Below are positions 3,273-7,046 of a stretch of 64,000 nucleotides of DNA, piece after piece. The translations under genes were made by a program, and so were the position numbers. The notes beneath the pieces were generated by a model that made no database searches, was not told the DNA's origin, and saw only the letters and a program-made list of their open reading frames with translations. Positions within the stretch are counted from its first letter, which is position 1. Every line of letters starts with the position of its first letter. Origin of the DNA: Lachnospiraceae bacterium (GTDB lineage: Bacteria > Bacillota > Clostridia > Lachnospirales > Lachnospiraceae); contig JAFYDI010000023.1 in NCBI GenBank assembly GCA_017544835.1, positions 32,206 through 96,205 of the forward strand. Direction: 5' to 3'.

Positions 3273-4001
3273 TTATAATTCGTATTTCGATTTCTTTTTA
3301 TTGATTTCGTTCATGTACGCGGCAGTTATCATACCGGAAGGAAGCGCGATTACCGCTACGCCTACAAGAGCGGATACCATGGTGATTAAGCGGCCCAAAT
3401 CGGTCTTTGGATATATGTCGCCGTAACCAATGGTGGTGATGGAAATCGTAGCCCAGTACAGTGCATCGAAGAAGGTTTCAAACAGCGTGGGCTCAAGCTG
3501 GAAGATTAACATCGCCGACACGAATATATATATAGTGATGAGTACCAGTACCGCCAGAAGCTGCTTCTTAACTTTTCTGAGCACATTGGCGATTATAACA
3601 GTGGTCTTAGAGTAGCGTACAAGTTTCGCTATTCGGAATACCCTGAAAAGTTTAAGGAGCTTAATAAGCGACGAAACCGGTAAGAACAGCGACACAATCG
3701 GGACTATCGACAGAAGATCGAGTATCGCAAGAGGGGTAAAAATATAAGCGATATAAGCTTTTATGCTCTTATAGCCCATCTTATAGTCTGCGGTATATAC
3801 TCGGGCGCAATAGTCTATTACGAATATTATAACCGTAAGTATCTCAATGAGCGTTGTATATGTATTTTCGCTTTTAAGCATCAGAGGAACCATTCCGACG
3901 AGTACGGCGGTACCCATAAGCACGTCGTAGGCTTTACTGGAGGCGTCTCCGGTACTTGAAGCTTCTATTACTTCGTAGATTCTTCTTTTGAAATCATACA
4001 T
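3273..4001 (-). CDS. voltage-gated K+ channel-family ion transport protein
   Basis: Selectivity-filter signature TTIGYGD. S4-like helix with basic residue every third position (FRVFRIAKLVRYSK). Six hydrophobic helices. RBS AAAGGA upstream. Confidence 0.8.
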   Translation of the reverse strand: MYDFKRRIYEVIEASSTGDASSKAYDVLMGTAVLVGMVPLMLKSENTYTTLIEILTVIIFVIDYCARVYTADYKMGYKSIKAYIAYIFTPLAILDLLSIVPIVSLFLPVSSLIKLLKLFRVFRIAKLVRYSKTTVIIANVLRKVKKQLLAVLVLITIYIFVSAMLIFQLEPTLFETFFDALYWATISITTIGYGDIYPKTDLGRLITMVSALVGVAVIALPSGMITAAYMNEINKKKSKYEL

Positions 4002-4031: not shown

Positions 4032-4193
4032 TTATCTTGCCATTCCCGTGACAAAAGCAACCACTCCCACAATAATCAGGGCAATTGTGTAAATTCTGCA
4101 TAACGCAACAAAAATTCGAGAGTGAATCTCCTTTTTGTTAATATATGTGCCATCGTCTGTAATCAGCATATTTTTTTTCTTTTTTTCAGTCAT
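4032..4193 (-). CDS. small (53 aa) single-pass membrane protein, unannotated sORF upstream of K+ channel gene
   Basis: Own reverse-complement translation: MTEKKKKNMLITDDGTYINKKEIHSRIFVALCRIYTIALIIVGVVAFVTGMAR*. ATAGGAGAG RBS 6 nt upstream. Stop lies about 30 nt before the channel-gene start. Below the 60-aa cutoff of the ORF track. Confidence 0.35.
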   Translation of the reverse strand: MTEKKKKNMLITDDGTYINKKEIHSRIFVALCRIYTIALIIVGVVAFVTGMAR

Positions 4194-4291: not shown

Positions 4292-5911
4292 TTGCTATAC
4301 TTTACATTGAACAGATGTGCACAATTGCGAGGCAGCATGGCAGACAGAAAATCGATTTTGCTATCGGAAGAACAATTAAACTTTATAAAAAGAGCGTCCG
4401 CCGGCAAGAATATGCTGGTTGATGCCCCCGAGGGCTATGGTAAGACAACTGCGCTTATCGAGCTTTGCGAAAGGCTTCCGAACAGAAAAAGAATCCTTTT
4501 CTTTGCCTCGGACCGAGTCGCCAAGAACGATGTGGAAGAAGTGCTTAAAAAGCGCAACGTCACTGTAGCGTATTTCCATGGGTTCGCTTTCAAGGAACTT
4601 AGGAAAATCGGTGTCTACGGTGAGCCGGAAGAACTTATAAATCTTTTTAATAAGGTTAATCCGGACGTTTCGGAATATGATCTTTTAATCGCGGATGAAT
4701 TTCAGTTTATAGATGCCGGGAGTTCGCAGATGCTTAAGAATATTAAGTATCACTGCGACAATCTGCAGATAATTCTCGCAGGCAATACCGCGAACAGATT
4801 CTATGACAAAAAGCAGTTTGACGCCAAAATCTTTGCTGACGAGCTTTTGGGTGAGCATGAAGAAATGCGTTTTGCCAACTGCTATGAAGTGTCTGAGTAT
4901 TCGTCGGATGGTGGCGACAGATTGAGTGAAGCGGGAGCAGACGGAGAGGATTATGCTTCTTCGGAAGATCTTGCTGAAACCGTACCCGCTTCGGTTAAGA
5001 AAGAACCGGTGAAACGTTTAGGCGACGGCATCAAAATAGCGGTAGTCGATGCGGAACTTAACAAGAACAATGAGGTTATGTCCGTAGGCGCGGTGGTTGC
5101 CGATTCAGAAACTTTTGAAATAAGCGACGAGCGATACTTTATCATAACTCCCGAGAATTTAGAGGGAGGAATGTTTTTAAAAGAACTAAGAACAGGGGAC
5201 TGCATAAATGCGCCGGCTGTTTCAAGAGAGGAAGCGCTTCAGAGGATAGCTTTCTTTTTACGGGACAATAATGTTAAGGCGATTTATGCCTATAATGCGG
5301 CGTTTGACAGGGGAATGCTTCCGGAACTGGCGGAATTTACCTGGTACGATATTATGAAGCTTGCCGCATACAAAAAGTACAATCCGGCAATCGGTCAGGC
5401 AGAGGCCTGTGACAAGAACGGAAGACTTAAGAAGGATTTCGGCGTCGGATCCATGATAAGGCGCATGACGGGCGATGTAAGCTTCACGGAGACCCACAAT
5501 GCACTGTATGACGCAAGAGATGAGCTCAAGGTCATGGAGCTTCTTGACAGACCCGTATCCGACTATGAATTTGCACGGGTAGAGGGTGACTTATCAAGCC
5601 GAGACGATTTTTTGTTCCAAATCGAAGGGACCAACGATGTGGTGCTTGAAGATGACGCTATTTCTGCCACGGATGCGGAGATAATCTTAGGAATCAACAA
5701 GAATAACATATATAAGCTTGTAAGAAAGGGCTTAATATTCGGATATAAAAGGGATAACCGATACGTCTTAAGCAAGCGTTCGGTGGAAGAATACCTTGAA
5801 AAACTCGAAGCGGCGGAAGCCAAGAAGTACAAGAAAGCCCTTCTTGGCATTCTTACAACGCTTTTGGGGTTCTTAATATATCTGTGGCACCTTGCGGCCA
5901 ATTTTTATTAA
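4292..5911 (+). CDS. fusion protein: UvrD-like SF1 ATPase N-terminal (1A) domain + DnaQ-like DEDDh 3'-5' exonuclease + excisionase-family HTH + C-terminal hydrophobic helix
   Basis: SF1 motif I (LSEEQLNFIKRASAGKNMLVDAPEGYGKTTALIE), motif Ia region, motif II DEFQ (LLIADEFQFID) and a degenerate motif III. Exo I (IAVVDAELN), Exo II (YAYNAAFDRGML) and Exo III (HNALYDARDEL). Excisionase-type HTH (ILGINKNNIYKLVRKGLIFGYKRDNRYVLSKRSVEEYL). Terminal ALLGILTTLLGFLIYLW helix. Probable true start is the internal ATG at about 4337 (MADRKS) with a GAGG RBS. Confidence 0.7.
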   Translation: MLYFTLNRCAQLRGSMADRKSILLSEEQLNFIKRASAGKNMLVDAPEGYGKTTALIELCERLPNRKRILFFASDRVAKNDVEEVLKKRNVTVAYFHGFAFKELRKIGVYGEPEELINLFNKVNPDVSEYDLLIADEFQFIDAGSSQMLKNIKYHCDNLQIILAGNTANRFYDKKQFDAKIFADELLGEHEEMRFANCYEVSEYSSDGGDRLSEAGADGEDYASSEDLAETVPASVKKEPVKRLGDGIKIAVVDAELNKNNEVMSVGAVVADSETFEISDERYFIITPENLEGGMFLKELRTGDCINAPAVSREEALQRIAFFLRDNNVKAIYAYNAAFDRGMLPELAEFTWYDIMKLAAYKKYNPAIGQAEACDKNGRLKKDFGVGSMIRRMTGDVSFTETHNALYDARDELKVMELLDRPVSDYEFARVEGDLSSRDDFLFQIEGTNDVVLEDDAISATDAEIILGINKNNIYKLVRKGLIFGYKRDNRYVLSKRSVEEYLEKLEAAEAKKYKKALLGILTTLLGFLIYLWHLAANFY

Positions 5912-6088
5912 AAGGAGATACGTTCTCACATAGCGGCAACTCCTTATCACGAGGAAAAGCGTCTTACGGTTTCCATGGGTGTCACGGTTATAGGGAACAA
6001 AGAAGAATTTGCCGCAGCAATGAAGCGAACGGACGAGAACCTGTATTATGCCAAGACCACCGGCAAGAACAAAGTAGTGGCCAAGTAA
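5912..6088 (+). pseudogene. 3' remnant of a diguanylate cyclase (GGDEF) gene, C-terminal ~55 codons only
   Basis: In the same frame, immediately after the TAA of the preceding CDS: KEIRSHIAATPYHEEKRLTVSMGVTVIGNKEEFAAAMKRTDENLYYAKTTGKNKVVAK*. Canonical GGDEF-domain C-terminus pattern (SxGV...ADxxLYxAKxxGKNxV). No start codon and no GGDEF motif. Confidence 0.6.
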
Positions 6089-6124
6089 GTGTTAGAAAAA
6101 ATAATAGCAAGCAAAGGAAACTAT

Positions 6125-6153
6125 TTGACAAAAATCCGTTTCTTTTGTACAAT
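6125..6153 (+). promoter_or_regulatory. consensus sigma-A promoter (TTGACA-17-TACAAT) driving a ~150-nt leader and two small membrane protein genes
   Basis: TTGACAaaaatccgtttcttttgTACAAT. Downstream leader carries an imperfect CACTGC/GCAGTG hairpin followed by a T-run before RBS AGGAGG. Confidence 0.6.
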
Positions 6154-6306
6154 TTTTATTGTAAAGACTTGGCACGAAGCCGAGCGTAAGCACCGAAGTG
6201 CAGGTTTTATTTTTCGAGGAATGTGTACTTGGAGGCACACTGCTTTTTCAAGAAAAGCGCAGTGCGTCTTTTATTATGCAAATTTAAGCCTTAGGAGGAA
6301 GAAATT

Positions 6307-6717
6307 ATGGCATGTTTTTTGGTATCCGCAGCAGAAGCTGTAGTCACCACAGTTGTGACACACGTAGTTGAGAAGAAGGAAAAGGCTGAGGTAGCTAAGG
6401 TTTCCGTAGATCACAAGGAAGTACCCACCGAGGTTAAGGTTCCTTTTTCAAGAAAGTTAAAATGGCTTAACAATATGTTATGGGGAGGTTCCGCACTTCT
6501 TGCATTTGAGCATGTATGGCACGGCGAAGTGGTTCCGTGGTTCCCTTTCCTTACAGCGGCAGGTAATCCCGAGGATGCTGCAGAGATGCTTCATGAGATG
6601 TCAACTGTAGGCGTATCCATGGCTGTTCTTGTAACACTTGTATGGACAGGTATGCTTGTAGTTTCATCGGTTATTGAGAAGCGCGCTGCTAAGCTTCCCG
6701 AAACAGAGAATGCATAA
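6307..6717 (+). CDS. small membrane protein, paralog A
   Basis: 136 aa with RBS AGGAGGAAG. Shares a W-G-[GA]-S-x-L-x(2,3)-F-[EI] core with the next ORF (LWGGSALLAFEHV versus YWGASLMWFIDAIFEY). Function unknown. Confidence 0.55.
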   Translation: MACFLVSAAEAVVTTVVTHVVEKKEKAEVAKVSVDHKEVPTEVKVPFSRKLKWLNNMLWGGSALLAFEHVWHGEVVPWFPFLTAAGNPEDAAEMLHEMSTVGVSMAVLVTLVWTGMLVVSSVIEKRAAKLPETENA

Positions 6718-6731
6718 GGGGGAACATAAAC

Positions 6732-7046
6732 ATGACATTGCTTACAACGGTTTTCGCAGCTATTATCGTTACAATTATCTGGTATAAGAGCCCTAACAGA
6801 AGCGAAATGAAGCTTGGTACTTTAAGCCTTATGTACTGGGGTGCATCACTTATGTGGTTCATCGATGCTATCTTTGAGTACGCTGAGCTTAAAGAAGAAT
6901 ACTTCACACCCGCACCCGCTGATATGCTCAACGACTTTTTCTTAGGTCTTTCCGTTGTGGCACTCGGCCTTATCATCTGGCTTGTAATCGTGCTTATCAA
7001 AGACCCCAAGGGTGTTCTTAAGACAGCACTTGTTAAGAGAAACTAG
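6732..7046 (+). CDS. small membrane protein, paralog B
   Basis: 104 aa with RBS GGGGGAAC and two or three TM helices. Paralogous to the preceding ORF. Confidence 0.55.
   Translation: MTLLTTVFAAIIVTIIWYKSPNRSEMKLGTLSLMYWGASLMWFIDAIFEYAELKEEYFTPAPADMLNDFFLGLSVVALGLIIWLVIVLIKDPKGVLKTALVKRN

Follow-up and report, generated by a model that had tools for sequence, protein, structure and literature searches.

In a stretch of 64,000 nucleotides from a Lachnospiraceae bacterium (contig JAFYDI010000023.1; hereafter the window), a gene on the forward strand encodes a protein of 524 amino acids (aa), in which five parts follow each other from the N- to the C-terminus: the 1A domain of a UvrD/Rep-type superfamily 1A (SF1A) helicase, an acidic disordered linker, an intact DEDDh exonuclease, a helix-turn-helix (HTH) domain of the HTH_17 family and a predicted transmembrane helix. 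This protein and its orthologs, designated here as short forms, are a lineage-specific, motor-less reduction of an uncharacterized helicase-nuclease, whose members are designated as long forms; they are rare, occur in a few rumen bacteria and do not constitute a new kind of system. The original prediction, made from the sequence of the window, had described an unusual single-polypeptide fusion. This architecture is real, but the term fusion is wrong for its origin, since it arose when an internal part of a larger pre-existing fusion was deleted, not when a half-helicase was joined to an exonuclease.

The long forms, proteins of about 800–1000 aa, combine an SF1 helicase, a RecB/Cas4-like PD-(D/E)XK nuclease and a DEDDh exonuclease, with an HTH domain and a membrane tail in some of them. 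A word-indexed search with the window protein gave five short proteins with this architecture, at 57–100% identity, as well as a dozen proteins of about 800–900 aa that matched the query at both ends. With P0009 (813 aa), residues 10–188 of the query align with residues 9–187 (42% identity, E 1e-41) and residues 234–416 with residues 632–813 (45% identity, E 2e-48), leaving 440 middle residues of P0009 without a counterpart in the window protein, and the same result was obtained with P0015. In the long forms, this middle region contains helicase motif V (TTYDSSKGLER), motif VI (VAASRGK), which aligns with motif VI of FBH1, and a PDDEXK_3 nuclease with the RecB/Cas4-like D..ELK and QxxxY signatures. 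The place of the 2A domain and of this nuclease is taken in short forms by a 44-residue acidic low-complexity linker, and on its left side the deletion begins at motif IV, where 1A meets 2A in SF1 helicases. Motif IV itself reads CFRLS in long forms and CYEVS in the window protein with the loss of the arginine, and motif III has changed from GDMEQKIY to GNTANRFY. The 1A and DEDDh domains of the window protein are homologous to those of the long-form family and follow each other in one polypeptide as they do there, but the 2A and PDDEXK_3 domains in between are lacking.

The HTH domain and the hydrophobic tail are not additions of the short form, because the long form P0019 (1021 aa) and those at loci L013, L015 and L081 already carry both, following a complete helicase, nuclease and DEDDh exonuclease in the same order. 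In a neighbor-joining tree of concatenated 1A and exonuclease domains, which included long forms, the seven distinct short forms constitute one clade, and their monophyly argues for a single deletion event. On such comparisons, it is close to certain that the window protein is an internal-deletion derivative of the long-form family. Among relatives of the parent family, P0017 (652 aa) resembles the helicase-nuclease part, has an N-terminal DUF5710 domain and lacks the exonuclease, which shows further modular variation. A long-form fragment, P0040, contains at aa 364–406 a PcrA/UvrD Tudor domain between DEDDh and HTH. As the Tudor domain is the RNA-polymerase-binding module of PcrA and UvrD, this hints that some family members may contact RNA polymerase.

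The predicted open reading frame (ORF) at positions 4292–5911 on the forward strand is present, but TTG 4292 is merely its earliest possible start. The true start is almost certainly ATG 4337, because a GAGG Shine-Dalgarno sequence is located at 4329–4332, every ortholog begins with MA(D/E)(R/K)KS and the database protein P0001 (524 aa) is 100% identical to the product of the shorter frame. The coding sequence hence spans 4337–5911 (+) including the stop codon TAA at 5909–5911, and residues are numbered here from this methionine, with the exception of Pfam domain coordinates, which follow the 539-aa numbering from TTG 4292. A possible extended -10 element (TGcTATACT, 4293–4301) upstream of the ATG was spotted by eye and is an unverified candidate; a promoter scan did not pick up the gene's own promoter, a terminator scan found no terminator and an Rfam search across 1–12 kb of the window gave no match.

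The relic 1A domain (aa 8–187; 4358–4897) retains the Q-motif and motifs I, Ia and II of the UvrD/Rep/PcrA 1A domain, with the Walker A sequence GYGKTT at aa 33–38 (4433–4450) and the Walker B sequence DEFQ at aa 120–123 (4694–4705). It is recognized by Pfam as P-loop helicase domain 1 (DEAD, 3.7e-9; AAA_19, 2.1e-8; aa 27–169). Motif III, GNTANRFY (aa 149–156; 4781–4804), is degenerate, the arginine of motif IV is replaced in CYEVS (4880–4894), and there is no second RecA-like domain (2A), the part of such helicases that bears motifs IV–VI and the arginine fingers. The similarity to SF1 holds by profile, sequence and fold comparison, although a PDB search with the single sequence gave only marginal matches to the VirB11 P-loop, and it was the profile that reached FBH1. 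As the 2A domain is part of the roughly 440 residues missing relative to long forms, the window protein is not a helicase. Translocating helicase activity is impossible, because there are neither 2A nor arginine fingers and no 2A-like ORF, which might provide this domain in trans, was found in the 64-kb window. The 1A domain of this protein would be capable at most of nucleotide binding.

The acidic linker (aa 188–231; 4898–5029) corresponds to a gap in the alignment with long forms and has predicted local distance difference test (pLDDT) values of 23–25. In AlphaFold models, aa 184–231 are disordered, and each of the folded domains has a pLDDT of about 90. The exonuclease domain (aa 232–415; 5030–5581) carries Exo I (DxE) as DAE at aa 238–240 (5048–5056), Exo II (NxxxD) as YNAAFD at aa 319–324 (5291–5308) and Exo III (Hx4D) as HNALYDA at aa 387–393 (5495–5515) on an RNase H-like fold, which places it in the DEDDh superfamily. 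Within this superfamily, its best Pfam match is the Rv2179c-like family PF16473 (24.0 bits, E 3.6e-5, aa 252–416), in which membership was rejected, as the score is below the 27-bit gathering threshold. Identity with DnaQ, Pol III epsilon or Exonuclease X was also rejected, since no NCBIfam family, DnaQ and Exonuclease X types included, reaches its cut-off, the best being exodeoxyribonuclease X with 12.7 bits against 202. By fold, it matches Exonuclease X and ERI1/3'hExo, the latter being RNA exonucleases.

The HTH_17 domain (PF12728) of excisionase type at aa 450–489 (5684–5803) scores 30.8 bits against a cut-off of 27 (aa 465–504) and 37–55 bits in orthologs, and a homologous HTH is present in the long forms P0019, P0038 and P0040; with the TIGR01764 excisionase model, the window protein scores below the cut-off. 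The C-terminal helix at aa 501–521 (5837–5899) is the sole strongly hydrophobic segment (Kyte-Doolittle 1.9), is helical in the model and contains invariant columns. It is preceded by KKYKK and followed by only three residues, features that fit a tail anchor, and is predicted to function as such with the catalytic domains facing the cytoplasm. What had been noted at first about the intact exonuclease motifs, the partial set of SF1 motifs, the excisionase-type HTH and the terminal hydrophobic helix was thus borne out, and the lack of 2A is now demonstrated by alignment with full-length relatives.

Constraint is distributed over all folded parts of the protein and spares the linker. Comparison with the orthologs at loci L001 and L002 gave ratios of nonsynonymous to synonymous substitution rates (dN/dS) of 0.06–0.10 in 1A and of about 0.05 in the exonuclease, values that are rough as the synonymous rate (dS) is saturated. 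Linker identity to the same two orthologs is 31–46%, and the linker is 9–30% identical among orthologs with one invariant column out of 44. Across six short forms, invariant columns amount to 28% in 1A, 40% in the exonuclease, 33% in the HTH, 36% in the tail and 2% in the linker. Seven distinct sequences of 45–100% identity all keep an intact ORF. These figures indicate that all folded domains are under purifying selection and that the 1A half-helicase is maintained and not decaying. At the same time, its catalytic residues erode in some lineages: the Asp and Gln of motif III are lost in most short forms, Walker B has DG instead of DE in P0005, and in the most divergent P0018 (45% identity) Walker A reads GKR and Walker B reads AE. 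Because purifying selection persists yet ATPase residues erode in some orthologs, the 1A half-helicase is viewed as a retained non-motor module. The four acidic residues of the DEDD site are invariant in all short forms aligned, and the Exo III histidine is present in five of six, being replaced by Asn in P0018. In the P0018 lineage, both catalytic centers may therefore be dead, as judged from these substitutions.

Among the functional readings considered, we lean modestly towards a motor-less 3'-5' exonuclease that acts on DNA, is tethered to the membrane and retains a relic domain for binding nucleotides or single-stranded DNA (ssDNA), a model whose steps are deduced from sequence and fold. 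Its starting point is one ancient in-frame deletion, which removed the 2A motor and the PD-(D/E)XK nuclease exactly at domain borders. The C-terminal helix would anchor the protein in the membrane with the remainder in the cytoplasm, HTH_17 would hold duplex DNA, and the DEDDh site would remove nucleotides from 3' ends in a distributive, non-processive manner. The orphan 1A domain cannot drive translocation, because motifs V and VI and the arginine fingers are missing and motifs III and IV are degenerate; instead of hydrolyzing ATP for movement, it may persist as a module that binds nucleotide and/or ssDNA and thereby positions or gates the exonuclease. The most likely substrate would be DNA 3' ends near the membrane, and the protein might serve in a residual surveillance of incoming DNA or in the local processing of ends. 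DNA is favored over RNA as a substrate, because the same exonuclease clade recurs with the helicase-nuclease, in 12 fused genes and 5 split operons among 79 species loci, and is also found fused to a FEN-type 5'-3' exonuclease and to an HHH_5 domain. Precedents for a regulatory role of a helicase relic are available: in Staphylococcus aureus DinG, the ATP cleft of a non-unwinding helicase domain controls the fused DEDDh exonuclease (PMC3270479), and the dead SF1 domain of AddB, which keeps Walker A alone and has DG in motif II, reads ssDNA (PMC3321194). By analogy with these, the 1A relic might regulate the exonuclease.

Several observations weigh against this model. AlphaFold provides no confident arrangement of 1A and exonuclease (predicted template modeling score (pTM) of 0.42, and 0.48 in a model of aa 1–416 built to see whether 1A docks on the exonuclease), and hence the gating or positioning contact is structurally unsupported. 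The Pfam exonuclease match is below its curated cut-off, making the domain a superfamily-level relative only, and the replacement of the Exo III histidine in P0018 implies that catalysis may not be the conserved function. Saturation of dS renders the dN/dS values approximate, membrane insertion is judged from hydropathy alone, and the exonuclease, binding and gating roles are predicted ones across the whole family.

Far from being ubiquitous core genes, short forms are very rare. An exhaustive HMMER search over 1.84 billion cluster representatives yielded 529 relatives at E <= 1e-3, among which only two are full-length short forms, P0002 (69% identity) and P0018 (45%). When the alignment was used as query against one genome per species, the short form was found in 2 of 185,579 species genomes, namely the cultured Lachnospiraceae bacterium YSD2013 and a metagenome-assembled genome (MAG) from buffalo reticulum, and the short forms belong to a small clade of rumen Lachnospiraceae. 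For the exonuclease clade, 79 species loci were recovered, of which 59 contain a stand-alone DEDDh gene of about 185 aa and 12 a fused long form (two of them cut by contig ends). A split operon, in which a separate DEDDh gene comes right after the helicase-nuclease gene, occurs at five, a DEDDh-HTH protein at one and the short form at two loci. The 59 stand-alone DEDDh genes have no conserved neighbors beyond artefacts of antisense ORFs and generic paralogous families; two such copies are present within 4 kb in an Acetobacterium MAG (L039; 9995–10552 and 13794–14351). The long form had no match in a phage collection, and on plasmids only two actinobacterial relatives of the helicase-nuclease, without the exonuclease, were found. 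A helicase-nuclease and DEDDh operon and a stand-alone DEDDh gene were also observed in gut- or termite-associated archaeal MAGs (L029, Methanobacteriota; L016, Candidatus Methanoplasma), which suggests either horizontal transfer between Clostridia and methanogens or bin contamination.

The genomic location of the short form is fixed. In the window, it is flanked by a divergent Ion_trans channel gene (3273–4001, minus strand; Pfam) and a 53-aa membrane ORF (4032–4193, minus strand; from translation), and by the remnant of a GGDEF gene downstream, as had been proposed for the channel and the truncated gene. The same site is occupied in YSD2013 (L001), in two MAGs (L002 and L010) and on a metagenomic contig (L089), with a conserved order of DUF4026, then the Ion_trans channel and a membrane ORF of about 50 aa, which are read from the other strand, and then the main gene; the channel and small ORF keep this position in four distinct short-form loci besides the window (L001/L011, L002, L010 and L089). 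Further downstream, two small membrane proteins, a TPR-like protein, a GNAT acetyltransferase, a 479-aa GGDEF protein, Rrf2 and a Cys/Met-metabolism enzyme are conserved. The wider synteny is kept even in L090, the locus of the 45%-identical ortholog, in which an HTH_3 gene stands in place of the channel, and owing to this replacement the channel was rejected as a functional partner. The small membrane ORF is replaced in L090 as well, and neither of the two is an obligate partner. The GGDEF remnant, defined by comparison with L002, L089 and L090 and by DNA alignment, comprises the last 58 codons and stop (5912–6088, +), in frame and directly after the TAA of the main gene. An intact gene for a 342-aa membrane GGDEF protein (a diguanylate cyclase with RWGGEEF) is located 29–84 nucleotides downstream in five of seven distinct loci, including L002, L010, L089 and L090, and has disappeared altogether in YSD2013. 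The statement that the gene lacks operon partners hence applies to the window genome but not to these five orthologous loci. Since GGDEF adjacency is confined to the short-form locus and absent from all long-form and stand-alone loci, a family-wide partnership was rejected in favor of local synteny.

The window shows additional losses relative to L001 and L002, with an SBP_bac_8 and MCP pair missing between the DUF6709 and DUF4026 genes (1914–1991) and three minus-strand genes (HTH_5/DUF2087, 115 aa and 337 aa) missing downstream (6088–6306); the comparison indicates that this neighborhood underwent repeated deletions in the window genome. A near-consensus sigma-70 promoter-like site at 6125–6153 (+; TTGACA, 17-nucleotide spacing, TACAAT; 11 of 12 positions) precedes two small forward-strand genes, 6307–6717 (136 aa) and 6732–7046 (104 aa), that are conserved in all syntenic loci, and Pfam gave nothing significant for their products, with one sub-threshold match (E 0.088) on the 136-aa protein. 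No integrase, phage or defense genes were seen in the syntenic neighborhoods of the short form (no integrase family among Pfam-annotated genes), the window contains no tRNA genes, and the GC content of the gene is the same as that of its flanks. The shared site shows vertical inheritance of the short form at one chromosomal position in a small clade of rumen Lachnospiraceae, and the proposed context of a defense island, prophage or integrative element did not hold.

This bears directly on the reading favored at first, by which the protein is an active stand-alone anti-phage or anti-plasmid effector, a membrane-tethered nuclease that destroys foreign DNA on entry. We consider it unlikely. In its favor, some long forms directly follow a type I hsdM-hsdS-hsdR operon, and others lie among DUF4132, Fic, Mrr_cat and T1RH-like genes and a gene for a UvrD plus zinc-ribbon helicase. 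When the neighbors of 14 additional long-form loci were pooled, they comprised GmrSD_N, an EcoRI-type restriction-modification pair, LmuB, AbiEi/Eii, HEC-06, PDC-S01 and integrases. The window protein also matches the PADLOC model of a Cas-associated DEDDh nuclease (E 3.4e-10) and, locally with aa 26–124, the 587-position GajB model, both being weak, and SNIPE, a membrane-bound nuclease that cuts injected phage DNA, is a precedent (10.1101/2025.11.03.685801). However, long-form neighbors are heterogeneous and comprise housekeeping enzymes, long forms also occur beside sugar-metabolism genes, and short forms reside at a single non-defense site with orthologs that are 45–70% identical. They have moreover lost the motor and the endonuclease, which are both needed for a processive degradation machine, and the window protein matches no complete PADLOC system; Gabija GajB was rejected, given the solely N-terminal match and no GajA-like (ATPase-TOPRIM) neighbor, and long forms gave only local GajB-like and DEDDh matches and no complete system. 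Thus, of the proposal that the gene encodes a defense or mobile-element nuclease rather than a housekeeping DnaQ, the rejection of DnaQ stands, as does an ancestry in an accessory helicase-nuclease family with some members beside restriction-modification, Fic, Mrr, GmrSD, AbiE or Lamassu-type genes, but the short form itself is located outside any defense or mobile context. A bolder and unlikely reading would be that the long-form family, of which some members would be tethered to the membrane by the HTH and tail anchor, is an undescribed single-gene system destroying incoming linear DNA at the membrane, of which the window protein is a domesticated derivative with an ATPase-dead 1A domain as the nucleotide or ssDNA sensor that switches the tethered exonuclease on and off.

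Alternatively, the protein could be a non-catalytic, membrane-tethered DNA-binding or scaffold protein that uses its enzyme domains as binding surfaces and may act with the downstream diguanylate cyclase. The main argument for this is P0018 (L090, 10001–11590), in which the Thr of Walker A, the Asp of Walker B and the His of Exo III are gone, although its ORF is intact, syntenic and present on three contigs. In comparison with P0018, the HTH and tail are best conserved (55–56%, against 41% for 1A), the tail motif LWHLAA is invariant in six of six short forms, and the GGDEF gene adjoins in most distinct loci. This explanation is nevertheless rather improbable: the exonuclease is the most conserved domain overall, its four acidic residues are retained throughout and its histidine in all but one, and the GGDEF gene has been lost in the window and in YSD2013 with retention of the main gene and adjoins neither long-form nor stand-alone relatives.

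The same neighbor could be explained if the protein were an exoribonuclease or diribonucleotidase tied to cyclic di-GMP turnover. Orn degrades pGpG, and an equivalent activity would be in line with an Rv2179c-like 3'-5' exoribonuclease as the best Pfam exonuclease model, with the fold resemblance to the ERI1/3'hExo RNA exonucleases and with the GGDEF gene downstream in most orthologous loci. We regard this as very improbable, given that this clade of exonucleases recurs in fusion with or next to the DNA helicase-nuclease, the FEN-type exonuclease and HHH_5, that a DNA-binding HTH_17 domain is attached and that the GGDEF link is limited to one syntenic locus. Finally, a functionless decaying remnant with an open frame by chance, which might be suspected from the loss of two domains, the degenerate helicase motifs III and IV and an adjoining GGDEF gene that is itself a deletion remnant, is strongly disfavored and barely credible in view of the intact ORF in seven distinct sequences with identity down to 45%, dN/dS of about 0.05–0.10 in all folded domains next to a freely drifting linker, and the confident model of each domain.

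Short forms represent a natural experiment in enzyme reduction, in which a domain-precise deletion took half a helicase motor and one nuclease, leaving an orphan 1A domain that has long been under purifying selection with catalytic residues eroding in some lineages. This overturns no established view and opens no long-standing question. The uncharacterized parent family, in which a motor is combined with two nucleases of opposite polarity and, for some members, with a membrane tether, is absent as such from PADLOC v2 and is worth testing for anti-phage or anti-plasmid activity. In public annotation, long forms are labeled 'AAA family ATPase' or 'helix-turn-helix domain-containing protein', uninformative names that could give way to better ones.

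Among known systems, the nearest relatives of the window protein are the long forms, which are like it in 1A, DEDDh, HTH_17 and C-terminal membrane helix, but retain what it lacks and occur in variable contexts, some of them of defense type, in contrast to the fixed syntenic location of the short form. UvrD-Cas4-like fusions in defense contexts (PMC5704561) resemble the long-form ancestors in combining a UvrD-like helicase with a RecB/Cas4-type nuclease and in a partial association with restriction-modification. They differ by PF12705-type nucleases and by having no DEDDh, HTH or membrane helix; they are taken as an analogy, with relatedness considered at the superfamily level, and the window protein has neither their complete helicase nor their nuclease. 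Its DEDDh domain shares the Exo I–III motifs and the fold with Exonuclease X, ERI1/3'hExo, Rv2179c, Cas2-associated DEDDh and DnaQ, with sequence similarity at the superfamily level only and without a polymerase or CRISPR context. With SNIPE (10.1101/2025.11.03.685801), the likeness is one of concept, a nuclease placed on the cytoplasmic side of the membrane at the point of entry of foreign DNA; as far as compared, no relation exists between the domains, and SNIPE serves as an analogy only. A parallel is provided by S. aureus DinG (PMC3270479), which joins a DEDDh 3'-5' exonuclease and a non-unwinding helicase-derived domain in one polypeptide, but belongs to SF2 (XPD-like), has both RecA-like domains, still hydrolyzes ATP, carries the exonuclease at the N-terminus and has no HTH or membrane anchor. 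AddB and RecC (PMC3321194) keep the full four-subdomain helicase fold and work in complex with an active motor subunit, whereas the window protein has no 2A at all, and the window encodes no motor that could be its partner. The theme of non-motor helicase domains known from AddB, RecC and S. aureus DinG is extended here to an extreme, in which a single RecA-like lobe survives.

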